Shown: piece by piece, positions 26,629 through 64,000 of the stretch
How the letters are laid out: every line of letters starts with the position of its first letter
How positions within the stretch are numbered: position 1 is the stretch's first letter
Source of the DNA: Candidatus Altiarchaeota archaeon
GTDB lineage: Archaea > Altiarchaeota > Altiarchaeia > IMC4 > SCGC-AAA252-I15
Direction of reading: 5' to 3'
Length of the DNA: 64,000 bases
Assembly: GCA_041306075.1 (NCBI GenBank)
Contig: JBFYKH010000027.1
Location: 4,226-68,225 of the forward strand
Program-made: the position numbers and the translations under genes
The notes under the pieces: generated by a model
What the model was told of the DNA's origin: nothing
Databases searched by the model: none
Seen by the model: only the letters and a program-made list of their open reading frames with translations

Positions 26629-26745
26629 GCGACCGTAGTGTAGTGGCTCGGCCTTCCTAAGGCCGGCGAAGGAGCCATCTTCGCTCGGGCTCGATGGCTC
26701 AGGACGTATGAACCCGCAGAGGGGGATGGAACAAACAACAGTGTA
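26629..26745 (+). ncRNA. tRNA-Gly-derived degenerate tRNA-like unit 1 (5' half + anticodon-like arm CCU, no 3' acceptor strand) fused to a conserved hairpin module
   Basis: Starts with GCGACCGTAGTGTAGTGGCT, identical to the 5' 20 nt of tRNA-Gly at 26877; then CGGCC-TTCCTAA-GGCCG (perfect 5-bp stem, 7-nt loop, U33/A37); then CGAAGGAGCCATCTTCGCTCGGGCTCGATGGCTCAG. No CGGTCGC acceptor 3' strand. Confidence 0.4.
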
Positions 26746-26746
26746 C

Positions 26747-26870
26747 GCGACCGTAGTGTAGTGGCTATCACTGAACCTTATTAAGGTTCACGAAGGAGCC
26801 GTCTTCGCTACGGCTCGACGGCTCAGAACGGATGAAGCCTCTGACAAGGGGGTGGATTAAACAAAAAAAA
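26747..26870 (+). ncRNA. tRNA-Gly-derived degenerate tRNA-like unit 2 (acceptor 5' strand + D-arm + anticodon-like arm with loop UUAUUAA) fused to the same conserved hairpin module
   Basis: GCGACCGTAGTGTAGTGGCTATCACT identical to tRNA-Gly positions 1-26; then GAACC-TTATTAA-GGTTC; then CGAAGGAGCCGTCTTCGCTACGGCTCGACGGCTCAG, which shows compensatory A:T to G:C changes relative to unit 1; no 3' acceptor strand. Confidence 0.4.
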
Positions 26871-26876
26871 CCATAC

Positions 26877-26948
26877 GCGACCGTAGTGTAGTGGCTATCA
26901 CTCCAGATTGCCAATCTGGTGACTCGGGTTCGAATCCCGACGGTCGCA
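26877..26948 (+). tRNA. tRNA-Gly (anticodon GCC), intronless
   Basis: GCGACCG-TA-GTGTAGTGGCTATCAC-T-CCAGA-TTGCCAA-TCTGG-TGAC-TCGGG-TTCGAAT-CCCGA-CGGTCGC-A; canonical cloverleaf with 4-nt variable loop; CCA not encoded. Confidence 0.9.
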
Positions 26949-26975
26949 AACTGATTTATTTGTTAACGATTTCTT

Positions 26976-27036
26976 GTCACGAAACCGTCGGGGTGCAAAA
27001 AGCCTGCAGGCTTTTATAGAAAATCACGACTGCCGC
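26976..27036 (+). repeat. ~60-nt structured repeat, copy 1 (immediately 3' of tRNA-Gly)
   Basis: tcacgaaACCGTCGGGGtgcAAAAAGCCTGCAGGCTTTTatagaaaatCACGACTGCCG; about 85% identical to copy 2; inner palindrome AAAAGCC/GGCTTTT. Confidence 0.6.
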
Positions 27037-27073
27037 ATGGATAAAAAGGTATATCCCCTAGGGATGATACATA

Positions 27074-27319
27074 ATGATGGACAAAGGGGATACTCGCGTA
27101 ATCTGGATTATTTCAATAATAATAGTCATGGCAATTTTCCCCCATAGCGAAAAAAGATGTGAACGATGCTCGGAGCTATTTACGCTTGGCTGGCCAATCG
27201 ATACCTATTCAAGAAACAGCACGGGAGATTTGATTGCGCCCGGGGCAGGACTTATAGTATACCCTTTAACCATCCTAATCCTTCTTACCTATCGAAACCA
27301 GCATAAAAAAATTAATTAG
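27074..27319 (+). CDS. doubtful small hydrophobic ORF within AT-rich insert
   Basis: 81-aa ORF in a ~500-bp AT-rich segment between the two structured repeats; no support beyond ORF length. Confidence 0.15.
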   Translation: MMDKGDTRVIWIISIIIVMAIFPHSEKRCERCSELFTLGWPIDTYSRNSTGDLIAPGAGLIVYPLTILILLTYRNQHKKIN

Positions 27320-27536
27320 GTTGATTTTTCCCTAGTACCCATTCACCTTGGAGGTTGAGGTATATTTCTAGGTTTCCACCCCCCCCGACCCATCCGTTCG
27401 CTCGTACAATGTTCTTCGCCTGGTATTGAAGTCCGATACAGCCGCAAAATTTTTCGGAGATGTGGGATGGCTACGCATTAGATATTTTACGCAATTCCCA
27501 ACGGCCGGAAACTGAATTTTTGGCGGACAATTTATC

Positions 27537-27596
27537 GTCACGAAACCGTCGGGGTGTAAAAACCTGAATGGTTTTTAGAAAAATCCCGACGGTCGA
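27537..27596 (+). repeat. ~60-nt structured repeat, copy 2; 3' arm is a 14-nt identical copy of the tRNA-Gly 3' end (att-like)
   Basis: tcacgaaACCGTCGGGGtgtAAAAACCtgaatGGTTTTTagaaaaaTCCCGACGGTcgaaa; AATCCCGACGGTCG (27582-27595) equals tRNA-Gly 26931-26944. Outer 9-bp stem ACCGTCGGG/CCCGACGGT; inner stem AAAAACC/GGTTTTT covaries with copy 1. Confidence 0.6.
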
Positions 27597-27672
27597 AATT
27601 ATATCTATTATCGGTTTGGCTGCTGTGTTGAAATAGTGTAGCGACTTAATATCGTATACTTCCGGCTTGTAT

Positions 27673-28398
27673 ATGACGATGAGGAAGTTGAGGGGGCAGC
27701 CGCTGCTTTCCCCGCCCGGCCCGGATTTGGTGCCTGAGTGGCTGAGGGTGACGCCAGAGGACAGGGAATGCATGAGAGGGACGCTTGAGACGTATAGGAC
27801 GATGGACGGCCTCGACTGGGCGTTGGCGGAGTTGCACTGCCATATGCGGCTTATTGGCGAGACGCAGACCGTGACGGATGAGGATAAGAGGGGGTTTACG
27901 AGCCAGATGGAATCGTATAGGACGGACCGGGACGGCTGGGGTGTGGCCTTGATGCAGTATTCCATGCGGCAGCTCGGGGTGGCGGAAGCGGTAACTGAGC
28001 AGGATAGGAGGCTCATGAGGCGTGAGTTGGAGGCGGACAGGACAGGTCACAAGGGCGGAGAGCTTGCCTGGATGCACTATACTATGCGGCAGCTCGGGGT
28101 GACGGAGGCGGTAACCGGCGAGGACAGGCAGGACATGAAACAGCAGTTGGGCGGATACAGGACGGACCACGACGGCGCGGGAGTCGCCAGGATGCACTAT
28201 TATATGCGGCAGATTGGGGAGGGGGAGGCGGTGACGGGCCAGGACCGCATCGACATGAGGCATTCCCTGGAGGCGTTTAGGTCGAGCCCGGACGGCCGGG
28301 AGATGGCCTGGATGCACCACGTCCTCCGCTCCCTGGAGCCGGACGGCGGGAGGCAGGCGCAAGCCGGGATGCCGCCTTTGAAATCGTTCAGGAGGTAA
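27673..28398 (+). CDS. RP family member 1: novel ~40-aa tandem helical-repeat protein with conserved N- and C-terminal caps
   Basis: MTMRKLRGQPLLSPPG... then 4.5 repeats (..DGxxxAxMHYxMRQLGVxEAVTxEDRxxMxxxLxxYRT..) ... GMPPLKSFRR; paralogous to five other genes in the window. Confidence 0.6.
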   Translation: MTMRKLRGQPLLSPPGPDLVPEWLRVTPEDRECMRGTLETYRTMDGLDWALAELHCHMRLIGETQTVTDEDKRGFTSQMESYRTDRDGWGVALMQYSMRQLGVAEAVTEQDRRLMRRELEADRTGHKGGELAWMHYTMRQLGVTEAVTGEDRQDMKQQLGGYRTDHDGAGVARMHYYMRQIGEGEAVTGQDRIDMRHSLEAFRSSPDGREMAWMHHVLRSLEPDGGRQAQAGMPPLKSFRR

Positions 28399-28416
28399 TA
28401 AGCGCTCAGGGAGAAT

Positions 28417-28662
28417 ATGTTTTGTGGCATGATGAAAAGACACCACATAATATTGCTGGTTCAATGGTTTTTCTTCACGTCGCTGATACTGTTCGTGCTG
28501 ATTCAGCTGGGTATCCTCAACCGCGCCCCGGCCGGGTTGACGGCGTTCGAGAAGGCCGTTGTAATCTTCGAGGCGGTAGTCGGCATCCAGTTCCTCTACC
28601 TCGTGTTGTTCGCGCTCTGCTATGGCCCCGGTTTCGTCTCAAAAAAGCTGGGATTTGATTGA
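28417..28662 (+). CDS. small membrane protein (2 TM), hypothetical
   Basis: 81 aa with two long hydrophobic segments; follows RP1 after an 18-nt gap. Confidence 0.35.
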   Translation: MFCGMMKRHHIILLVQWFFFTSLILFVLIQLGILNRAPAGLTAFEKAVVIFEAVVGIQFLYLVLFALCYGPGFVSKKLGFD

Positions 28663-28812
28663 GCCGGGGGGTTAGTTGGTTTCTGCTTCGCTTTTTTTTC
28701 GTCCGGCTTCTTCCGGGTTTCTTTTTGGGGTGTGTCTTCCCGGAGGGTAAAATCCTTTATTTTCGGCGCTTCTGGGTAGAGTTCGATTCCCGGGAACCTT
28801 GGCTCTGGTTTC

Positions 28813-29208
28813 TTATTTAATCGGATTCTCATTTTGCTGTTTTTCTTCCGTCCTAGGCATCAGTCCCGGGTCCGTCTTCCTCTTGATTAGGAAGTAGTAT
28901 AGGGTGGCGCCGAGCCAGTGTGTTAGGGCGATGATGAGTACCCAGGTGGTCTTGTCGCTTTCCGTTTCGAATTTCCTGTTGACGCAGTCGACGAGCATGA
29001 GTATCCAGAAGACGGTGCCGAGGACTCCCAGGGCCACGATGGCGGCCATGAAGAGGAGCCACAGGAGCCAGAAGCCGCCGAATAAGGCGACTGGGATGAG
29101 CATCAGGAGGATTGCGAAGAGTCCGGCGCCGGCTTCGCCGCCGCCTTCGGCCGCCGCGTATGATGCCGCCGCCGATGCCGCTGCCGCGAGCGCGATTGGC
29201 TTGTTCAT
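28813..29208 (-). CDS. small integral membrane protein (PLDc_N-like)
   Basis: 131 aa with 3 TM; WVLIIALTHWLGATLYYF resembles the PLD-nuclease N-terminal (PLDc_N) small membrane family. Confidence 0.4.
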   Translation of the reverse strand: MNKPIALAAAASAAASYAAAEGGGEAGAGLFAILLMLIPVALFGGFWLLWLLFMAAIVALGVLGTVFWILMLVDCVNRKFETESDKTTWVLIIALTHWLGATLYYFLIKRKTDPGLMPRTEEKQQNENPIK

Positions 29209-38234: not shown

Positions 38235-38993
38235 ATGGGAGACAAGATAACCCTCGACCGCGAGACGTTCAAGGCCCTGGCCGCTGACACCAGGGTCGAC
38301 ATACTGAAGAAGATTGCAGAGCGGAAGCTGACGCTCACGGACCTGTCCGGCGACATGGGGATGAGCCCCTCCACCATCAAGGAGCACCTGGACCGGCTCG
38401 TCGAAGTCGGCCTCATAGAGCCGGACGAGCGTGGGATGAAATGGAAGTACTACACGCTCACCGAGAAGGGCAGGAACATCGTGAGCCCGAACGAGACCAA
38501 GGTGTGGATACTCCTCGGGACCAGCCTGCTCATCATGTTCGGCGCCCTCCTGTCGACTGCGTGGCAGCTCGCCGGCGCCGGCGTCATGGAGTCCCGGGCC
38601 CCAGGCTCAGCCGAGGTTATAGTGCTCGCCGAGCCCCCGAGGACCGACCTCCTCTTGGCGGCGAGGAAGGATGCTGCTGCACTGGAGGCCGCGCCGAAAA
38701 TGCTCAGGTCCGCAAGCGGCGCCGGCACGGACGAGACGGGAGACTTGAGGCTAGAGGAGGCCCGGGAGACGGATGAAGCCAATGCGTCGGCGGAGGCCGT
38801 GCAACTGATGGTCGCCGCCGCGCCCGCAGGCGGCGGCGAATCCGCATCCGGAGTATACGCCGGCGAGGACAGGCTCCGCGCCCGGGATGGAGGCGGAAGC
38901 CCGGTGGTCGAGGCCATCGTCTTCCTCGCCTCAGCGACGGTGGCGCTAGCCTGCATCGTCCGCATATTCAAGGCAAGGGCGGTCAGCCTCTGA
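38235..38993 (+). CDS. ArsR-family HTH regulator fused to a TM segment and C-terminal tail
   Basis: MGDKITLDRETFKALAADTRVDILKKIAERKLTLTDLSGDMGMSPSTIKEHLDRLVEVGLIE (ArsR/SmtB wHTH); TM WILLGTSLLIMFGALLSTAW; second hydrophobic segment at the C-terminus. Confidence 0.6.
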   Translation: MGDKITLDRETFKALAADTRVDILKKIAERKLTLTDLSGDMGMSPSTIKEHLDRLVEVGLIEPDERGMKWKYYTLTEKGRNIVSPNETKVWILLGTSLLIMFGALLSTAWQLAGAGVMESRAPGSAEVIVLAEPPRTDLLLAARKDAAALEAAPKMLRSASGAGTDETGDLRLEEARETDEANASAEAVQLMVAAAPAGGGESASGVYAGEDRLRARDGGGSPVVEAIVFLASATVALACIVRIFKARAVSL

Positions 38994-39735
38994 CTACCGC
39001 CGACGCCCCCGGGTCGAACGGGTTCAGCCGCATCGCGAGCGAGAAAAGGTAGGGGTAGTTGTTCTTGAGGTGCCGCATGTACGCCGCCCACTCCACGACT
39101 ATGAGGCCGTAGACGCGTTTGACGTCGTTGTGTATGTGGTCCAGGTCCGCCTGCGGCAGCGACGACAGGTCCTCCCGGTTGTCGAGCTCCTCCGCCAGGT
39201 GGAACACCGCCTTCAGGAGGTCTGTGAACGTCTCGTGCTCTAGCAGGTTCGGGTTCTCGGACAGGCGCATCAGGAACTCCCTCTTCGAGTGGAGGTACGC
39301 CTTCATGACGCGCAAGTCCATGGCGCAGCGGTCTATGCCGTATTTGTAGGCCTTGAGCCTGCCGGCCATGCGCTCGAATTCGGCGTCGCTCCAAGTGTCC
39401 CGCACGAGAAGGTCCCGGCGTATGTCGCCGAGCTCCGGGTCGCATTCCGAGAACGTCCGCATCAGCTTCGTCCCCATCTCCGAGAAGAAGAGGCCGATGA
39501 CCATGTTCACCTTCTCGAGGCGGTCCCTGCGCTCCCGTTCAGCGAGGACGCGGTCCACGAGGAATGTCACCAGGAGGACCTGGATGGGCAGGAAGGCCAG
39601 GTCCTCGAGCGAGAATATCCCTATGTGGTGCGGGTCCCGGTACACGAGGTAGTGGGCCCCGTACAGGAGGACGGACGACGCAAGCAACGCGATGCCGAAC
39701 CGCACCTGCCAGTCCTGAGCCTTCAGAGAATCCAC
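38983..39735 (-). CDS. hypothetical membrane protein
   Basis: 250 aa; two N-terminal TM (FGIALLASSVLLYGAHYLVY..., FLPIQVLLVTFLV) plus a soluble domain; immediately downstream of the RP array. Confidence 0.4.
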   Translation of the reverse strand: MDSLKAQDWQVRFGIALLASSVLLYGAHYLVYRDPHHIGIFSLEDLAFLPIQVLLVTFLVDRVLAERERRDRLEKVNMVIGLFFSEMGTKLMRTFSECDPELGDIRRDLLVRDTWSDAEFERMAGRLKAYKYGIDRCAMDLRVMKAYLHSKREFLMRLSENPNLLEHETFTDLLKAVFHLAEELDNREDLSSLPQADLDHIHNDVKRVYGLIVVEWAAYMRHLKNNYPYLFSLAMRLNPFDPGASAVVRG

Positions 39736-39783
39736 CCAGGATATAATTGTCTCATGGCTTTTTAAACCGCTTCAAGGGAGGCG

Positions 39784-40515
39784 TCATCGCGCGAACCTCC
39801 TGAGAGGGGGGAGGGGGATGGCGTCGTCCCCCTGCCGCTCCAGCTGGAGTATCCTCCGGAGCCAGTTGTGGTCCTCGGCCAACTCGATGCCGCGGCCTCC
39901 GAGCCGCGCCTTCTCGGGCTCCGCCGACATGAGCCGCCAGTCCTCTTGCGAGAGCTCCGTCTCCACGCCGACGCTCCGCATGTTGTAGTGGAGGAGGAGT
40001 ATGCCGCGGCCGTAGCCCTTCGCCCGGTCGCTGGCGAGCTGCCCGGCCATGGCCTTACGGTCCTTCCCCGCGGCCTCGGCGTCCACGCCGAGCTCCGCCA
40101 GCCACCGGTGCATCTGCGCGATATTGTAGCCGGGATTCTTCGTGGAACGCAGCGAATCCAATGCCGAGAGCATGAGCCGGGCATCGTCCGCGGATGGTTT
40201 CCCGGCTAGGCCGACATGTTTCAAGTCGGCTAGCATGCCGGCGAGCGGGAAGCCTTCGCCGCGCGAGCGGTACCCGCCTGTGCACTCGGCGAACATCCTC
40301 CCGTCCCCTTCGGCTTTTGGGGCCTCGTGCCCCATCTCCGCCATGCATCGGAGAATCTTGGCCGCGCCGATGCCGTACCCGTCCTTCCTGCATCCGGCGA
40401 GGTTCTCCTCTACGGCGAGCTGGTCGTCCTGGGTGAACTCCAGGGCCTGGAACCTGAACGAGCCTGGCGGGTTCATGAGGGGCTGCATCCGGAAGCCTGC
40501 GAGCCTGACTGTCAT
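39784..40515 (-). CDS. RP family member 2 (last gene of 3-gene array)
   Basis: MTVRLAGFRMQPLMNPPG ... repeats (..LLLHYNMRSVGVETELSQEDWRLM..) ... IPLPPLRRFAR; start overlaps stop of member 3 (ATGA). Confidence 0.6.
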   Translation of the reverse strand: MTVRLAGFRMQPLMNPPGSFRFQALEFTQDDQLAVEENLAGCRKDGYGIGAAKILRCMAEMGHEAPKAEGDGRMFAECTGGYRSRGEGFPLAGMLADLKHVGLAGKPSADDARLMLSALDSLRSTKNPGYNIAQMHRWLAELGVDAEAAGKDRKAMAGQLASDRAKGYGRGILLLHYNMRSVGVETELSQEDWRLMSAEPEKARLGGRGIELAEDHNWLRRILQLERQGDDAIPLPPLRRFAR

Positions 40516-41276
40516 CGCCCATACCTCTTGAGGCCCGGCAGCGGGTGGCCGGCAGCCTCATCAACCCCCGGGTCCGCCCTCAACGTCCCCTGCAGGTAGT
40601 ATAGGAGCCCGACGACGATGAGGCCGTCTCCCTGCCGCCGCCTCTCCTCCAGTTCGCCGCGTATAAGCCCCAGGTCCGCTTCCGTCATCTCCGGCCTGTG
40701 GCCGAGCCCCCTGAGGGCCCAGTGAGTCCAGTTCAGGCTGTACGCGTCCCCCATCCTGCGCGACTCCTCAAGATGCGCCATCGTGAACGCGAGCCCGTCC
40801 TTGCCTAATGCTTCGTTGACTCCGAGGCCGCTGGCGTACACATGGGCGAGCGCCGTCTGCCCCCTCTGAACGAAATGGTTCCTCATCCCCAGGAAGCGCC
40901 GCGCCGCCGCCTTCTCCTCGCCCGACAGTTCGACGCCGATGCCGAGGTTGCGCATGTGCCAGGCGTACTGGAGGAGGCGGACAGGAGTCTGCTCGGCCGC
41001 CTTCCGTATGACCTCAAAGTCATCCACCGACCTCCGGACGTCCTCCTTCCCCGTGGGGACGGAGATGCCGACGCTGATTGCCCGGTCTAGGAGGGGGGCG
41101 TAATCTCCGCCTGCGGCCACACGCCCCGTCCCCGAGTCGGCCCTGAGATTATCGACTGCCGCCTCGATAATCTCCCTGTCAGACTGCGACGTCCGAGCCC
41201 ACTCCGTCAGGGAGTCGTCGAGCCTAGGTGGCTCAAGGAGGGGCTGACCCCTCAGGCCCTTAAGCCTGGGAGTCAT
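40512..41276 (-). CDS. RP family member 3
   Basis: MTPRLKGLRGQPLLEPP ... HPLPGLKRYGR; ATGA overlaps on both sides. Confidence 0.6.
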   Translation of the reverse strand: MTPRLKGLRGQPLLEPPRLDDSLTEWARTSQSDREIIEAAVDNLRADSGTGRVAAGGDYAPLLDRAISVGISVPTGKEDVRRSVDDFEVIRKAAEQTPVRLLQYAWHMRNLGIGVELSGEEKAAARRFLGMRNHFVQRGQTALAHVYASGLGVNEALGKDGLAFTMAHLEESRRMGDAYSLNWTHWALRGLGHRPEMTEADLGLIRGELEERRRQGDGLIVVGLLYYLQGTLRADPGVDEAAGHPLPGLKRYGR

Positions 41277-42004
41277 CTTTGGAACCTCTTCAGCCCCGGA
41301 AAGGGAGGCGCATCGCGAGCCCTGGGCTCTGGTAAAGTGTCCTTGAGGTGGTGAAGCATCGCCGCCACCGTCCAGCCGTCTCCGTGCTCCCTAGCGTAGT
41401 CCAGGGAGAACCTGGCGGCATGCAGGTCCTTTTCCGTGAATTCGCATCCCATCCCCAGCCGCTTCATCAGGTAGTGCATCTCCGCTATGGATTCTCCGCT
41501 GGCCGCGCCGACGCCCTCGCCCCTAGCCTTGGAGAGCTTGCATGCGATTATGGCCCGGTCAGCGGCTTCCACACCCGCCTTGCCGGTCAGAATCTTCCTT
41601 GCGTCCAGCAGGTTGGCGAGGAACCAGCCGTCCCCCGCCTGGCGCGCGGACAACACCCGGCCGTCCAGCGTCTTAAGGACCTTCGCCCCATGGGGGCTGC
41701 CGTCCAGGCCGACGCCCTTCATCTTCGCGAGCACGAGGGGCTTGAATTCCCCGGAGCCGGCCGCATCGTCCGAAAGGAGCCCCCGCATCAAGGCGAGGTC
41801 AGAGTCCGTCACCTCCTCCGGGCTGCCGATGCCCCGGAGGTGGCGGTGGAGGGCCGTCAACTCCATGGCGTGCCCGTCCTTACGGGCGTAGTCGAGAGAC
41901 CTTTTGATGAGCTGCATGTCAGATTCCGCGGCGACCCGCCAGCCCTCGTACTCGCCTGGCTCCGTGAGGAGAGGCTGGGCCCTGAGCTTCCGGAGTGCGG
42001 GCAT
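41273..42004 (-). CDS. RP family member 4 (first gene of 3-gene array)
   Basis: MPALRKLRAQPLLTEPG ... IAEMHYLMKRLGMGCEFTEKD ... PPFPGLKRFQR. Confidence 0.6.
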   Translation of the reverse strand: MPALRKLRAQPLLTEPGEYEGWRVAAESDMQLIKRSLDYARKDGHAMELTALHRHLRGIGSPEEVTDSDLALMRGLLSDDAAGSGEFKPLVLAKMKGVGLDGSPHGAKVLKTLDGRVLSARQAGDGWFLANLLDARKILTGKAGVEAADRAIIACKLSKARGEGVGAASGESIAEMHYLMKRLGMGCEFTEKDLHAARFSLDYAREHGDGWTVAAMLHHLKDTLPEPRARDAPPFPGLKRFQR

Positions 42005-44404: not shown

Positions 44405-44958
44405 AACAGCTTCGAGGCCAGGGACTGTATCTCCGCCTGGACCTCCCCCTCGGGGCGGGAGGAGTCGACGTGGGTCATCCGCCTGAACTTCCCGTACTCC
44501 ACCTTCACCTTCCTGAGGAAGTCCTCGCGCTCGAATATCTCGTTAGACTTCGCCCTCTTCGCGGCCTCGGCCGGGTCCACGTCCAGGTAGACGACGAGGT
44601 CCGGGGAGAGCGCGAACATGTTCATCCCCATCAGCCACGCCCTGTCCACGCCCTGCGCGGACTGGTACGCTATCGTCGAATAGTAGTATCTCTCGCAGAC
44701 GACGTCCCTGCCGGCCTCGGCGGCCGAGCGTATCTCGTTCACATGCTCCACCCGGTCCGCGGTGAACAGGAGGGCGAGCGTCTTCGGGTCCGCCTTCACG
44801 CCGCCGGATAGTATCTCGCGTATCAGCTGGCCTATCCTTCCCTTCGTCGGCTCCGCGGTCAATAGGACGTCGCGGCCCTTCTCCTTCAGCCAGTCGGAAA
44901 GCAGCCTCGCATGCGTCGACTTCCCGCACCCGTCGAGGCCCTCGAGGACGACGAACAT
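44395..44958 (-). CDS. tmk: thymidylate kinase
   Basis: MFVVLEGLDGCGKSTHARLLSDWL (P-loop), AEPT, lid ...RA; the longer ORF start (MLNMFVV) is also possible. Confidence 0.8.
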   Translation of the reverse strand: MFVVLEGLDGCGKSTHARLLSDWLKEKGRDVLLTAEPTKGRIGQLIREILSGGVKADPKTLALLFTADRVEHVNEIRSAAEAGRDVVCERYYYSTIAYQSAQGVDRAWLMGMNMFALSPDLVVYLDVDPAEAAKRAKSNEIFEREDFLRKVKVEYGKFRRMTHVDSSRPEGEVQAEIQSLASKLFQT

Positions 44959-44989
44959 GTTTAACAATCAGCGGGCGATAATTAAAGCG

Positions 44990-45988
44990 ATGATAACGGT
45001 TGACGGCTCCCTCGGGGAGGGCGGAGGCCAGGTCCTGAGGACGGCAGTCGCCTTGAGCGCGGTCTCAGGCGAGCCGGTAAGGGTGTCCGGGATACGCAGA
45101 GGCAGGAGCAACCCGGGCCTCCGGCCCCAGCACCTGAAGGCGGTGGAAGGCGTCGGCCTCCTGTGCGACGCCTCTGTGGAGGGGTTGAGTGCCGGCTCCA
45201 CGGAGGTCGCGTTCGCCCCGGGGGGAATCAGGGGCGGCGCCTTGAGCTTGGACGTCGGCACCGCGGGGTCGGCGACGCTTGTTTTGCAGGCTCTCCTGCC
45301 GGTGGCCCTGTCCGCGCCGGCCGGCGTGGAGCTGACCGTCCGCGGAGGCACGGACGTCAGCGCGAGCCCGACAGCGGACTACTTCAGAAACGTGTTCCTC
45401 GGGAACCTCAGGTCCATGGGATGCGAAATCGAGGCCGAAACCGCATTGAGGGGATTCTACCCGAGGGGCGGCGGGGAGATACGGGTCAGCGTGAAGCCGT
45501 GGAAGAGGGGGAGGAGGGAGTTCCCGGAAAGGGGAGACATAGGGTCCATACGAATCCACAGCATCGCATCAGAGCACCTTAGACTGCAGGAGGTCGCGGA
45601 GAGGCAGGTCAAAGGCTTCCTGAAGGCCGTGTCCCCGCTCCACAGGGTGGACGCCCCCGAACCAGCCTACGTCAAGTCCGAGAGCGTCGGCTCCGCAGTG
45701 ACGGCAGAGGCGCGGTGCGGGGGGACTGTCGTCGGAGCCTGCGTCCTCGGGGAACGCGGACTCAAATCAGAGATGGTCGGGAGGATGGCTGGCGAAAGTC
45801 TGCTCGCCGAGCTCGCCCACGGAGCCCCGATAGACTCCCACATGACAGACCAGATAATCCCGTACCTCGCCATCGCCGGCGGCCGGGTGAGGGCGCCGCC
45901 CTTCACCGGACACGCGAAGACGTGCATCGAAGTCGCCAGGATGTTCGGCTTCGACGTCAGGTTCGAGGAGGGGTTGCTGACGGCCTGA
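44990..45988 (+). CDS. rtcA: RNA 3'-terminal phosphate cyclase
   Basis: MITVDGSLGEGGGQVLRTAVALSAVSGEPVRVSGIRRGRSNPGLRPQHL (RtcA signature); start chosen at the second Met to give the canonical length (333 aa). Confidence 0.8.
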   Translation: MITVDGSLGEGGGQVLRTAVALSAVSGEPVRVSGIRRGRSNPGLRPQHLKAVEGVGLLCDASVEGLSAGSTEVAFAPGGIRGGALSLDVGTAGSATLVLQALLPVALSAPAGVELTVRGGTDVSASPTADYFRNVFLGNLRSMGCEIEAETALRGFYPRGGGEIRVSVKPWKRGRREFPERGDIGSIRIHSIASEHLRLQEVAERQVKGFLKAVSPLHRVDAPEPAYVKSESVGSAVTAEARCGGTVVGACVLGERGLKSEMVGRMAGESLLAELAHGAPIDSHMTDQIIPYLAIAGGRVRAPPFTGHAKTCIEVARMFGFDVRFEEGLLTA

Positions 45989-63088: not shown

Positions 63089-64000
63089 CTATCTCGTCCT
63101 GACCGCCATCCCGCGCTTGAAGTCCCTTATCTCCCTGGGGCTGAGCATGAGGGTCCCGCAGCGGATGAAGTCGTCCTTCCCGTCGACGAGGATGCACTCG
63201 TCGCCAGAGCGGAGCTCCGGGTCCACTTCCTTGACGAACTTGCACATCGCGCTCTTGCCCTCGCGGACCGCGGCCAGCGCCTGCTCGTCGTCCGAGAGGA
63301 CGACCCTCAGCCGCGGGGCCTGGAACCGCTCCTTGAGCCGGAGGGCCAGCTTCTCGTGGGGGATTATGAAGTGGTCGGAGGCCCTCACGGACGCGAGCAT
63401 CCCGCCGCCGTCGTACAGCCACCTGATGCGCTTCGTGTTTTTCGACTTCTTTATCCTCAAGCCGTCAGGCAAAAGCTCGCCTGCGCCCTTCCCGAACTGG
63501 TACTCCATGATGGCGCGCAGCTTCGCCATGTCCCTGACCCTAGGCTTCGAATCGTCCGTCATGCTGTAGACGCCGTTGAACGGGTAGATGTCCAGGAGCT
63601 CCTCGTTCACGAGGCCGAAGGGCGGAAGCTCCAGGGTGTTTGCGGTCGTAATCCTCGCGAGCCTCGAGCGCGCGTTCACCACCTCGGTGCGCAGCTCCGA
63701 CTCCGGTCCGGTATGGCACAGCTGCGTCCCCTTGCTTATCTGGTCGACCTCCGCCATCCAAGCGGAATGGGCCATCAAGGCGTCCAGCGCCTTCATCATG
63801 GCCGGATGAGCCCTCGCCTGCGTGAGCACCAGCTCCCAGAGGCCGCCCTCCGCTATCGCCTGCTTCACGCGCTCGACCATCGCCAACGACACGTAGAGGT
63901 TGTGTTTGGCTATCGCCTTTACCTTGTCGTCCCCGTACAGCCGCTTTATGCCCAGGCCGTTTTGGCTGCACACCGGGCACGTGCACGAGACGTACTCGAG
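63089..64000 (-). CDS. tgtA: archaeosine tRNA-guanine transglycosylase family, C-terminal part (Zn site, C1/C2, PUA); 5' end beyond window
   Basis: Minus-strand frame is open to the window end (...LEYVSCTCPVCSQNG = CxCxxC Zn motif); C-terminal ECILVDGKDDFIRCGTLMLSPREI is a PUA domain. Confidence 0.6.
   Translation of the reverse strand, partial: LEYVSCTCPVCSQNGLGIKRLYGDDKVKAIAKHNLYVSLAMVERVKQAIAEGGLWELVLTQARAHPAMMKALDALMAHSAWMAEVDQISKGTQLCHTGPESELRTEVVNARSRLARITTANTLELPPFGLVNEELLDIYPFNGVYSMTDDSKPRVRDMAKLRAIMEYQFGKGAGELLPDGLRIKKSKNTKRIRWLYDGGGMLASVRASDHFIIPHEKLALRLKERFQAPRLRVVLSDDEQALAAVREGKSAMCKFVKEVDPELRSGDECILVDGKDDFIRCGTLMLSPREIRDFKRGMAVRTR

Follow-up and report, generated by a model that had tools for sequence, protein, structure and literature searches.

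Transfer RNA genes are classic landing sites for mobile DNA, and partial copies of them are usually read as passive scars. In Archaea, integration at the 3' end and in the 5' half of tRNA genes are both known (PMC8371274; PMC9897764; 10.1101/2020.12.28.424599; PMC3293823). The T-loop and the 3' end are established target sublocations, att sites can be as short as 8-13 bp, and 5'-half targeting has been described for pTN3-like integrases (PMC8371274). In Caldiarchaeum, a mobile element left a tRNA 5' fragment behind (PMC3293823). We describe a tRNA-Gly locus of Altiarchaeota whose partial copies are miniature and uniform in size. Each copy pairs with a complement of its own, and the copies have followed the tRNA throughout a deep archaeal clade, with no integrase in sight. 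The analysis covers a 64-kb stretch of DNA (the window, lineage W) and its relatives, lineages X, Y, Z, U, V and T. Five of the seven related lineages carry one to three modules behind this tRNA-Gly, each composed of a spacer, an arm complementary to the T-stem/acceptor 3' strand, a small hairpin that varies and 14-17 nt copied from the tRNA 3' end.

Like the att scars and tRNA islands of archaeal tyrosine recombinases and the tycheposons of Prochlorococcus, this locus has a direct repeat that reaches the tRNA gene end (14/14 nt in the window; 17-mers in Y, Z and V), a central intact tRNA with fragments displaced outward, and variable, compositionally deviant DNA beside the tRNA. A 456-bp insert in the window is lineage-specific deviant DNA bracketed in this manner, though most repeats bracket only ~70 nt. 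Unlike att scars, the modules lack an integrase or remnant in all seven lineages, and their inter-repeat segments are mostly a near-constant ~65-75 nt rather than kilobases. In addition, an inverted complement and a small hairpin stand before each module repeat, and the arrangement is conserved throughout a phylum-level clade, where it changes together with the tRNA.

The E. coli tyrT-tyrV operon, which we checked, has three 178-bp tandem units directly behind the tRNA, each repeating ~19 nt of the tRNA-Tyr 3' end. These units are transcribed within the tRNA trailer, from which the annotated small RNA RttR and the tpr ORF derive. The likeness is one of analogy, not homology: the E. coli units are bacterial, show no sequence relation to the modules and have no variable island or insert at the copies. 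They are 95% identical, whereas the modules are ~85-90 bp long with ~50% identity outside the arms, and no inverted complement or minihelix-like hairpin has been noted in them, unlike the modules.

In form only, the modules resemble integron attC sites (imperfect hairpins of 57-141 nt with a variable centre, arranged in arrays) and the folded attP of CTX phage, hairpin sites that recombine in single-stranded form. They are imperfect hairpins of ~55-65 nt whose arms are conserved and whose centre varies freely; the array stands beside one primary site, one arm carries the shared core, and the inter-site segments range from empty to one ORF. A toxin-antitoxin pair in the island of one lineage adds to the likeness to integrons, which are known in Archaea (PMC9668308). 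The module core, however, is the tRNA 3' end, and a role in recombination is putative here. The boxes RYYYAAC ... GTTRRRY were not found in the module alignment, where the 3' arm ATCCCGNCGGNCGCA lacks GTTRRRY, and IntI was not found in the window or the related loci. Altiarchaeota are not among the reported archaeal integron hosts.

Each module is demonstrably a paralogue, in part, of the acceptor/T-arm of the tRNA itself. In its 5' arm, acceptor positions 4-7 run straight into the T-stem 5' strand; its 3' arm is the T-stem 3' strand, the acceptor 3' strand and A73, so that the stem reproduces 9-11 bp of the coaxial acceptor/T helix, as in a tRNA minihelix. The modules differ from the minihelix in lacking the first three acceptor pairs and an encoded CCA, and in place of the T-loop they have 20-30 nt that include a small hairpin; as RNAs they are putative. 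Should the copies prove to be active recombination sites, they would show how a hotspot of integration persists with no recombinase of its own. Should they prove to be RNAs, they would form a new class of tRNA-derived structured RNA in Archaea. In practice, the modules can mislead tRNA annotation and genomic-island callers.

Two modules behind tRNA-Gly in the window

The sequence-only reading of this region described a pair of ~60-nt structured repeats around an AT-rich interior, the second duplicating the end of tRNA-Gly. The pair is real (26972-27043 against 27533-27603, ~82% identical), but 60 nt is too short, and the repeats actually span ~100-115 nt. In their long form, 26933-27035 and 27494-27595 are 75% identical over 88 nt without gaps (82% by MAFFT), and each copy starts with a 14-mer resembling the tRNA 3' end. 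The 18-mer CACGAAACCGTCGGGGTG occurs at exactly two sites in the 64 kb, 26978 and 27539; 0.08 matches with at most three mismatches are expected from shuffled sequence. The units are not a common genome-wide element, the case that was to count against the earlier reading: beyond the two sites of the 18-mer in the window, a covariance model of the modules (R1) matches only behind tRNA-Gly in the 158 kb searched, and one of the upstream units described below (R2) matches tRNA-Gly loci only. The two spacers of the window are paralogues, and that of module 1 is 88% identical over 26 nt to its counterpart in lineage Z (L084 6253-6278). Coordinates are collected in the table.

Two of the structural claims held as they were made. 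AATCCCGACGGTCG is exact at 26933, within the tRNA, and at 27582, giving the 3' arm of copy 2 its 14/14 match to the tRNA-Gly 3' end, and the 5' arm ACCGTCGGG is the contiguous complement of AATCCCGACGGTCG in both copies. An outer stem in each copy holds for copy 2, which folds at -26.3 kcal/mol (z = -4.2 against shuffled sequence), but not for copy 1, whose 3' arm AATCACGACTGCCG has decayed to 11/14 and which by itself folds no better than shuffles (z = +0.3). The copy 1 5' arm is able to pair instead with the tRNA's own 3' end, 39 nt upstream. What had been taken for covariation of the inner hairpin between the window copies is really a paired one-base stem shortening with no substitution; true compensatory change in the inner hairpins is seen among the relatives only.

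Features of the tRNA-Gly locus in the window
Feature	Position	Strand	Remarks
Upstream unit A	26629..26739	+	tRNA-Gly positions 1-20; R2 112 bits
Unit A hairpin I (CGGCC TTCCTAA GGCCG), linker GCGAAGG		+	
Unit A hairpin II (GAGCCATC...GATGGCTC), tail ATGAACC...GGGGGATGG		+	
Upstream unit B	26747..26869	+	tRNA-Gly positions 1-26; R2 107 bits; fold z = -3.0
Unit B hairpin I (GAACC TTATTAA GGTTC), then ACGAAGG		+	
Unit B hairpin II (GAGCCGTC...GACGGCTC), tail ATGAAGCC...GGGGGTGGAT		+	
tRNA-Gly(GCC)	26877..26948	+	ARAGORN; Rfam tRNA model, 69.8 bits
tRNA-Gly last 17 nt, GAATCCCGACGGTCGCA	26932-26948	+	T-loop G57 to discriminator A73; segment repeated downstream
Module 1 spacer, AAACTGATTTATTTGTTAACGATTTCTT	26949..26975	+	Orthologue of the spacer of the outermost decayed module in lineage Z
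Module 1 hairpin unit (copy 1)	26976..27037	+	R1 70.6 bits
Module 1 box GTCACGAAA; 5' arm ACCGTCGGG	5' arm 26984-92	+	
Module 1 inner hairpin, AAAAGCC/GGCTTTT	26998-27004 / 27009-27015	+	
Module 1 decayed 3' arm, AATCACGACTGCCG(CA)	27022-37	+	
AT-rich insert, 456 bp	27038..27493	+	Left end TGGATAAAAAGGT matches left end of lineage X island
Orphan 81-aa ORF within insert	27074-27319	+	No Pfam or PHROG family
Decayed tRNA-3'-end copy ATTCCCAACGGCCG (27494-507), then module 2 spacer GAAACTGAATTTTTGGCGGACAATTTATC	27494..27536	+	
Module 2 hairpin unit (copy 2)	27537..27598	+	R1 77.4 bits
Module 2 box GTCACGAAA; 5' arm	5' arm 27545-53	+	
Module 2 inner hairpin, AAAAACC/GGTTTTT	27558-64 / 27570-76	+	
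Module 2 exact 14-nt copy of tRNA 3' end	27582-95	+	
Remaining lineage-specific island	27599..28841	.	Ends where lineage X synteny resumes, 28842
243-aa protein with 40-aa internal repeats	27667-28398		Internal 120-nt repeats in the DNA
81-aa membrane ORF	28417-28662		

Modules and upstream units across lineages

Behind the syntenic tRNA-Gly there is one module in lineage Y, two and a decayed one in Z, one in U and two in V, arranged head to tail directly 3' of the tRNA at a spacing of mostly 82-91 nt. Lineages X and T have no modules, the corresponding point in X being occupied by another island, and none of the relatives compared has a bare tRNA followed by the conserved downstream gene. R1 recovers eight modules at 57-77 bits in the 158 kb searched, all of them behind tRNA-Gly. 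The alignment shows that all modules are mutually homologous and that a module's place in the array shifts from lineage to lineage (W1 = Z3, U1 = V2, Y1 = Z2); the distal Z3 is decayed. A metagenome scan with a 43-mer from the tRNA 3' end found no lineages beyond X, Y and Z. The source genome is missing from the species-genome collection that was scanned, where the best relative reached 56% identity.

The link to tRNA-Gly is not due to chance; it recurs in the relatives and follows lineage-specific substitutions of the tRNA. The 3' arm, which runs from T-loop G57 towards discriminator A73, is an exact 17-mer in Y, Z and V, where loss of the match would have spoken against the original proposal; in the window, copy 2 has an exact 14-mer, and copy 1, like lineage U, has a decayed arm. 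The edges of the identity block, G57 to A73, are the same in Y, Z and V and reach the gene end. W, Y and Z share the tRNA 3' end CCCGACGGTCGCA, V has CCCGTCGGCCGCA, and the copies change alike. The 5' arm tracks the tRNA as well: ACCGTCGGG against CCGACGGGAT amounts to one compensatory change of a U-A to an A-U pair. Across the alignment, 87.5% of cells are paired, a share that falls to 18-50% once the partner is slid out of register.

Conservation within the modules is a mosaic, in which the arms are 90-100% conserved and the spacers and inner stems ~50%, with pairing kept. For seven of the eight modules the fold is far more stable than that of shuffled sequence (z = -2.7 to -7.1). Five of the eight give a slightly better fold as the plus strand than as the minus strand and one is a tie, an effect too small to decide between RNA and DNA. 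The neighbouring proteins are only 65-78% identical between the module-bearing lineages.

Archaeal termination requires T-runs only. The suggestion that the repeats are terminators is supported only in part: the inner hairpin takes the form A-run/stem/T-run with T4-T5 in W, Y and Z, and U and V have no such form. A consensus terminator scan missed these hairpins because they contain too few G-C pairs.

Upstream of the gene lies the mirror image of the modules: units that carry the first 15-26 nt of the tRNA joined to a strongly covarying two-hairpin body, with compensatory change at 8 of 13 base pairs. Unit A shares an exact 20-mer with the tRNA, and its helices covary across lineages. The polarity is consistent, with 5' fragments upstream and 3' fragments downstream of a single intact gene. 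Upstream units and modules number 2+2 in W and Z and 1+1 in U; the two modules of lineage V are matched by one upstream unit that is clear and a second that is partial. In X and T only one of the two kinds is present. An Rfam search of the locus found no family besides tRNA, leaving the upstream bodies and the modules unmatched, and ARAGORN and Rfam called only the true tRNA-Gly and tRNA-Met. A C/D-box reading of ATGAAGCC...CTGA was dropped, as it is not conserved across the units.

The insert, the island and searches for mobile elements

The AT-rich character of the interior is confirmed, with a GC content of 0.42-0.445 between the copies and ~0.62 in the flanking genes. The 456-bp insert is not present in the relatives compared. 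The 60-nt units had been taken as its ends; they are instead pre-existing modules, which stand in tandem with no insert in Y, Z, U and V. The real brackets are the decayed 14-mers at 27022-35 and 27494-507. Singly, such 14-mers are insignificant (8 matches at up to three mismatches, 10.8 expected), and only their place in the long alignment makes them credible as candidate sites. The junction of this att-like copy with TGGATAAAAAGGT in the window and that of the tRNA with TGGACGAAAAGGT in lineage X are identical at 24 of 29 positions, so that one and the same left end is joined to different tRNA-end copies. Homology between the right ends of the window insert and the X island was not significant (96/500 shuffles), and a candidate decayed module at the right edge of the X island proved to be the conserved C-terminal coding end of a PLDc_N gene. 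The 81-aa ORF of the insert, already called doubtful, is rejected as a real gene: among 1.84 billion representative proteins it had only two matches, both to long repetitive proteins, and no real homologue.

The DNA between the tRNA and the SppA gene is different in every lineage: the window has orphan ORFs, Z a ParDE toxin-antitoxin pair and other lineages other genes. The proteins of the remaining window island belong to no Pfam or PHROG family. These comparisons support the conclusion that the locus acts like an insertion site, and the variable island fits growth beside the tRNA through successive insertions (10.1101/2020.12.28.424599).

An integrase gene had been reported as absent, and we likewise found no integrase, transposase or remnant in the island, among the 40 main ORFs of the window or in the precomputed Pfam annotation of the seven related loci. 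A tblastn search with a Y1 transposase and a crude motif scan of the window were also negative. A Y1 transposase adjoins the locus in one lineage and is absent from the window and the other loci. The proposed comparison with viruses and plasmids gave no match in phage or plasmid collections, and viral contigs scanned with module and 17-mer patterns gave chance matches only, in GC-rich bacterial phage genes; one of these is an actinophage hairpin behind a DNA methylase gene. A matching attP was not found on a free element in these contigs and collections; Altiarchaeota mobile elements may be poorly sampled.

Interpretation of the array

We favour, at a probability of roughly 0.4, the view that the locus is an insertion hotspot with an array of repeated att-like sites. 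The repeated tRNA-end segments would be recombination sites, with DNA inserted, deleted or duplicated exactly at the copies, either through site-specific recombination by a recombinase encoded elsewhere or through unequal exchange between copies. Every event would rebuild an intact tRNA 3' end and leave a further copy outward; identity blocks with the same G57-A73 edges, reaching the gene end, are expected if an inserted piece must rebuild the tRNA. In the window, the AT-rich segment may have entered or stayed at the middle copy, splitting two modules that are adjacent in relatives. The complementary arm would hold each copy in a hairpin, and this hairpin may be the selected trait, either as a recombination substrate or, in AT-richer lineages, as a terminator or insulator of the tRNA transcript. 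The upstream units would be the 5'-side equivalent of the modules. Against this reading stands the finding that neither an integrase or transposase nor a free element with the site turned up in the loci and collections searched. The strong covariation of the upstream bodies, too, suggests that at least part of the locus acts at the level of RNA. Classical att sites, moreover, have no need for a complementary arm ~30 nt away, which the modules have, and the near-constant spacing argues against independent decay of large elements. A circle of 88 bp could not recombine as double-stranded DNA. Because all modules are homologous, unequal exchange producing tandem duplications accounts just as well for their number.

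The modules could instead be functional RNA in the 3' trailer of tRNA-Gly, that is, co-transcribed minihelix-like hairpins that serve as terminators or insulators or are processed, for example by RNase Z after the GCA end, into small stable RNAs. Identity with the tRNA end would then be kept by shared enzyme recognition, and copy number would change through unequal crossing-over. We consider this somewhat unlikely, although the folds of seven of the eight modules, the marginal advantage of the plus strand and the strong covariation of the upstream helices all agree with it, and the E. coli tyrT-tyrV trailer, as the source of RttR, offers a precedent. Mosaic conservation with pairing held in the inner stems indicates selection on structure. 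Beyond the terminator-like hairpins of W, Y and Z, the first T-run in V (T7) comes only after the second module, so that the modules there are probably transcribed with the tRNA. Yet that terminator form is missing in U and V, and in Y and Z the T5 run precedes the 3' arm, so that a transcript ended there would expose unpaired tRNA-complementary sequence. GAAT (57-60) and CGCA (70-73) lie outside the stem but are tRNA-identical in the intact copies of Y, Z and V, and hairpin function alone is therefore insufficient; the shared insert junction and the hypervariable island are left unexplained as well. A neutral history, in which partial tandem duplications over the tRNA ends were followed by gene conversion with the tRNA and differential loss, with no function, is unlikely. 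It accounts for a single homologous module family with constant spacing, for the close paralogy of W1 and W2, spacers included, for the decayed copies (the W1 3' arm, Z3 and U1) and for the polarity of the fragments, since duplications overlapping a gene end automatically give 3' fragments downstream and 5' fragments upstream. However, 17 nt is short for sustained gene conversion, and conversion by the tRNA cannot keep the 5' arm, which has no donor and nonetheless is identical between W1 and W2 (18/18) and covaries with the tRNA in V. Also against it, inner hairpins stay paired despite complete sequence turnover, and modules persist where neighbouring proteins have diverged so far.

The sequence-only reading took the locus for one small, decayed element (26949-27595) whose attL was the intact tRNA and whose attR was copy 2. 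The tRNA link and the behaviour of the locus as an insertion site survive from that model, and the exact 14-mer, the AT-rich interior and the general pattern of tRNA-gene fragments as attR scars (PMC9897764) all speak for it. As an attL/attR pair around one element, however, it is very improbable: relatives hold the units in tandem with no insert (Y, Z, U, V), the insert is bounded by inner decayed copies, and it carries no integrase remnant. Split or nested tRNA halves, joined at the RNA level as in Nanoarchaeum or Caldivirga, would match the division of parts, as the upstream units bear the acceptor 5' strand, a D-arm and an anticodon-like arm, the modules bear a variable-loop-like GTCAC, the T-stem and the acceptor 3' strand, and the numbers of units and modules agree. 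We find this scarcely credible and reject it on the ground that orthologues differ in their anticodon-like loops (CCT or CTT; ATT or ACT), none of which would read Gly codons. The modules also have no T-loop and their acceptor 3' strand already has a partner in cis, inspection by eye revealed no bulge-helix-bulge complementarity between tail and leader, X and T possess one kind of unit without the other, and neither ARAGORN nor Rfam recognises the halves.

In a decidedly unlikely extension of the att-like reading, the tRNA-Gly locus would be an insertion platform templated on the tRNA and served by a recombinase in trans, with the modules as folded sites resembling attC or CTX attP whose stem reproduces the acceptor/T-arm duplex, and the 5' units as a functionally linked second component, for example a guide or regulatory RNA. 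If true, such a platform would be an undescribed way to build and police an integration hotspot around an essential tRNA gene. Whichever reading holds, the upstream units are a good candidate for a new RNA family.

Hairpin modules behind tRNA-Gly

Two homologous stretches follow tRNA-Gly in the window, with 75% identity over 88 nt ungapped and 82% in a MAFFT alignment. The sequence-only reading had described them as ~60-nt repeats bracketing an AT-rich insert, the second ending in a copy of the tRNA 3' terminus. We confirm the pair, with four corrections. The homologous stretches are longer than 60 nt, and each has five parts: a 14-mer like the tRNA 3' end, an AT-rich spacer of ~30 nt, an invariant 18-mer (CACGAAACCGTCGGGGTG), a small hairpin between an A-run and a T-run, and another 14-mer like the tRNA 3' end. 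The 18-mer occurs only at 26978 and 27539, against a chance expectation of 0.08 matches even allowing 3 mismatches. The closing 14-mer is exact in copy 2 (27582-95), as described, but the 3' arm of copy 1 has decayed (11/14 at 27022-35). The insert is indeed AT-rich (GC of 0.42-0.445 in the inter-copy interval vs ~0.62 in flanking genes), but what brackets it is a pair of decayed 14-mers (27022-35 and 27494-507); neither is significant by itself, and both are credible solely within the long alignment. What had been taken for covariation of the inner hairpin between the window copies is paired stem shortening, without compensatory substitution. The term 'minihelix-like' is accurate, because ACCGTCGGG, the contiguous complement of CCCGACGGT, is the T-stem 5' strand joined to acceptor positions 4-7. 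The fold of copy 2 reaches -26.3 kcal/mol (z = -4.2). Copy 1 alone folds no better than shuffles (z = +0.3), but its 5' arm can pair with the 3' end of the tRNA itself, which lies 39 nt upstream. The 81-aa ORF between the copies has no family and no homologue.

Six related lineages with matching gene order (glycosyltransferases, [DUF2179], tRNA-Gly, variable stretch, SppA, S17e, Cas4-like nuclease) were recovered via the flanking DUF2179 and SppA proteins; the adjoining SppA protease has named homologues from Candidatus Altiarchaeota. Modules, each comprising a spacer, 5' arm, small hairpin and tRNA-3'-end copy, lie behind tRNA-Gly in five of the seven lineages. Their tRNA-end copies are spaced 82-91 nt start to start, except in the first V module, where a 44-nt GC-hairpin insertion breaks the spacing. 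A covariance model built from the eight module units (R1) scores them at 57-77 bits and has no further match, either in the 64-kb window or across ~94 kb of sequence from related loci, which argues against a genome-wide repeat unrelated to tRNA-Gly. Nor is the 14-nt match absent from relatives; it is present there and co-evolves with the tRNA. The repeat is non-random, and wider in occurrence than the sequence-only reading could see.

Modules of Y, Z and V end in an exact 17-nt tRNA copy, from T-loop G57 to discriminator A73. The tRNA variant is CCCGTCGGCCGCA in V and CCCGACGGTCGCA in W, Y and Z; both V copies show V's variant, and the V 5' arms become CCGACGGGAT, a U-A to A-U compensatory pair that mirrors the tRNA's own 49:65 pair. 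In lineage U the 5' arm lags, with one A-A mismatch. Family-wide, 87.5% of the cells in the stems are paired, vs 18-50% with a slid partner. The inner hairpins retain pairing despite total sequence turnover (GCC/GGC, CC/GG, GTCCC/GGGAC, GGC/GCC, CAACTC/GAGTTG, GTCC/GGAC), and 7/8 units fold with z = -2.7 to -7.1. The terminator-like form with A-run and T-run is confined to W, Y and Z. A GC-rich hairpin of lineage V, GTGCCCCC..GGGGGCAC within ~33 nt, is inserted at two places, one of the upstream units and the first module downstream, and occurs at no other place in the 119 loci.

Features of the tRNA-Gly locus in the window and related lineages (L-numbers are locus handles; other positions are in the window)
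Feature	Location	Strand	Remark
tRNA-Gly(GCC)	26877-26948	+	ARAGORN; Rfam 69.8 bits
Homologous stretches, copies 1 and 2	26933-27035; 27494-27595
Lineage W	window		reference for protein identities; 2 modules, insert between them
Lineage X	L079 / L081 / L090		84% to window DUF2179; 0 modules
Lineage Y	L083		78% to window DUF2179; 1 module
Lineage Z	L084 / L092		65% to window DUF2179; 2 modules + 1 decayed
Lineage T	L099		71% to window SppA; 0 modules
Lineage U	L100		68% to window SppA; 1 module
Lineage V	L101		66% to window SppA; 2 modules
Upstream units, window	26629-26869
Upstream units, relatives	L079 2631-2742; L084 5711-5995; L100 5158-5276; L101 7395-7656; L099 7785-7900
GCGAAG/CTTCGC sites	26665-26690; 26789-26814		same positions in relatives
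GC-rich hairpin, lineage V	L101 7436-7455; 7762-7781
Toxin-antitoxin pair, lineage Z	L084 6351-6817		ParD/ParE-RelE
243-aa ORF	27667-28398
GAGTTCGATTCCCGGGAACC	28776-28797
IS200-type Y1 transposase gene	L093 2654-3121; L094; L095
Five consecutive ORFs	38450-42004	-	331, 250, 243, 254, 243 aa
RtcA gene	44762-45988		RNA 3'-phosphate cyclase
Archaeosine-TGT C2/PUA gene	63089-63973

Probable DNA exchange at the tRNA-end copies

Orthologous modules occupy different positions in different lineages. The spacer of the first window module (TAACGATTTCTTGTC) matches that of the outermost, decayed module of Z; the U module corresponds to the second of V, and the Y module to the second of Z. From the tRNA to the next conserved gene, content differs in every lineage: the window carries orphan ORFs, with synteny to X returning only at 28842, X has a 152-aa membrane ORF, Z has a toxin-antitoxin pair behind its module array, and the remaining lineages have other genes. 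In X this variable island abuts the tRNA directly. Its junction (tRNA, then TGGACGAAAAGGT) and the left junction of the window insert (att, then TGGATAAAAAGGT) are 24/29 identical, tRNA-end part counted. By our estimate for this composition, 11/13 matches at a fixed, pre-defined junction arise by chance in ~1 in 10^4 trials; a shuffle test on unanchored local alignments lacks the power to reveal the match. In the two lineages, then, one and the same left end adjoins different tRNA-end copies, an arrangement that needs insertion at a copy or deletion between copies.

Within the lineage-specific island of the window, a 243-aa ORF with no Pfam or PHROG family is made up of 40-aa (120-nt) internal repeats, three or four in number (motif MRQLGV.EAVT..D). 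The sequence GAGTTCGATTCCCGGGAACC, which lies ~45 nt in from the island's right edge, resembles the tRNA T-loop and T-stem 3' strand, with 11/13 matches to the tRNA-Gly T-arm; it may be the remnant of an old att site or a chance likeness.

Structured units upstream of tRNA-Gly

The first 20 nt of tRNA-Gly recur exactly at 26629 and 26747. Such tRNA-5'-end copies (positions 1-20 or 1-26; the first 15-26 nt across lineages) head upstream units of ~110-125 nt. The unit body consists of hairpin I (7-nt loop TTNYTAA), the linker GCGAAGG, hairpin II and CAG; after the tail, ATGAANCC...GGNGGAT, comes an A-rich run resembling a promoter for the following unit. X, U and V have related units as well, Z has two of them, and in T the unit body directly follows a complete tRNA. 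The 5' fragment changes with the tRNA of its lineage, reading GTAGTG in W and X and GTAGTC in Z.

Thirteen proposed pairs across seven upstream units are 94% paired (slid controls, 18-33%), with compensatory change in 8/13, and 0/500 shuffles reach the observed values. Hairpin II is wholly different between the first Z unit (GAGCGGCT/AGCCGCTC) and T (GTGCTGTC/GACAGCAC). Neither Rfam nor ARAGORN recognizes the units, and a covariance model of them (R2) matches only tRNA-Gly loci. Loops at the anticodon position differ among orthologues (CCT or CTT; ATT or ACT); the units are therefore not decoding tRNAs or split-tRNA halves. We consider them a candidate new structured RNA family. GCGAAG in the linker is complementary to CTTCGC in the hairpin II loop, both invariant, and this alternative helix, which excludes hairpin II, is adopted in the MFE folds of some units; it may act as a structural switch.

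Origin of the modules

When an element integrates into a tRNA gene, the gene is restored by the piece that comes in, and its former end moves outward. The locus resembles such integration in that the identity block runs to the gene end, with its edge at G57 in all intact copies; one intact gene has 5' fragments upstream and 3' fragments downstream; the neighbouring region is hypervariable; and one junction is common to different copies. Archaeal integration targets include the T-loop, 3' end and 5' half, and att sites may span as little as 8-13 bp (PMC8371274). tRNA-gene fragments of this sort are common (PMC9897764), islands beside a tRNA can grow via successive events (10.1101/2020.12.28.424599), and a mobile element left a tRNA 5' fragment in Caldiarchaeum (PMC3293823).

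Passive scars of large elements do not fit modules of near-constant size that are all mutually homologous and have a selected complementary arm. A recombinase is also missing: we found no integrase, transposase or remnant in the island ORFs or 40 main window ORFs, no integrase or transposase in the precomputed annotation of related loci, nothing by Y1-transposase tblastn and a crude recombinase motif scan, and no virus or plasmid with the tRNA-end site. The 5' arm has no gene-conversion donor, yet it is invariant between the two window modules and covaries in V. The hairpin is therefore under selection of some kind. Our tentative reading, to which we give a probability of about 0.4, is that the modules are reiterated att-like sites with a functional hairpin. 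In the mechanism we infer, the hairpin would be a recombination substrate, formally like integron attC or CTX attP, or alternatively a terminator or insulator, and exchange at the 17-mers would alter the number of copies. The boxes that define attC are lacking here, IntI is absent from the window and related loci, and the archaea reported to host integrons do not include Altiarchaeota (PMC9668308).

An RNA function in the tRNA trailer is the main rival. It has a precedent, which we checked, in E. coli: behind the tyrT-tyrV operon stand three 178-bp units that each repeat ~19 nt of the tRNA 3' end, and the small RNA RttR originates there; we nevertheless think it rather unlikely here. Neutral duplication with gene conversion would account for copy number but leaves the arms unexplained, and is more doubtful still. 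The single integrated element suggested in the sequence-only reading is contradicted by the tandem arrays that relatives carry free of any insert, and is the least probable of these. The modules are best classed among tRNA-gene att fragments. What is unusual about them is their miniature hairpin form, their evolution in concert with the tRNA, the lack of a resident recombinase, and the mirrored, covarying RNA-like units upstream.

On an actinophage-like IMG/VR contig (L113 75-125), a hairpin behind a DNA methylase gene (GCGGCCGACGGG-N18-CCCGTCGGCCGCA) corresponds to a perfect acceptor/T-stem minihelix with the tRNA-Gly sequence of lineage V; since its host is a GC-rich bacterium, we treat the match as coincidence. 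An IS200-type Y1 transposase gene adjoins DUF2179 in one related lineage; tRNA-Gly there is on the opposite strand, and the contigs stop within the tRNA, hiding any modules. Elsewhere in the window, five consecutive ORFs with no Pfam family adjoin an AAA+ lid-domain protein, and the RtcA and archaeosine-TGT C2/PUA genes, both tRNA/RNA-end related, lie 18-36 kb from the locus.
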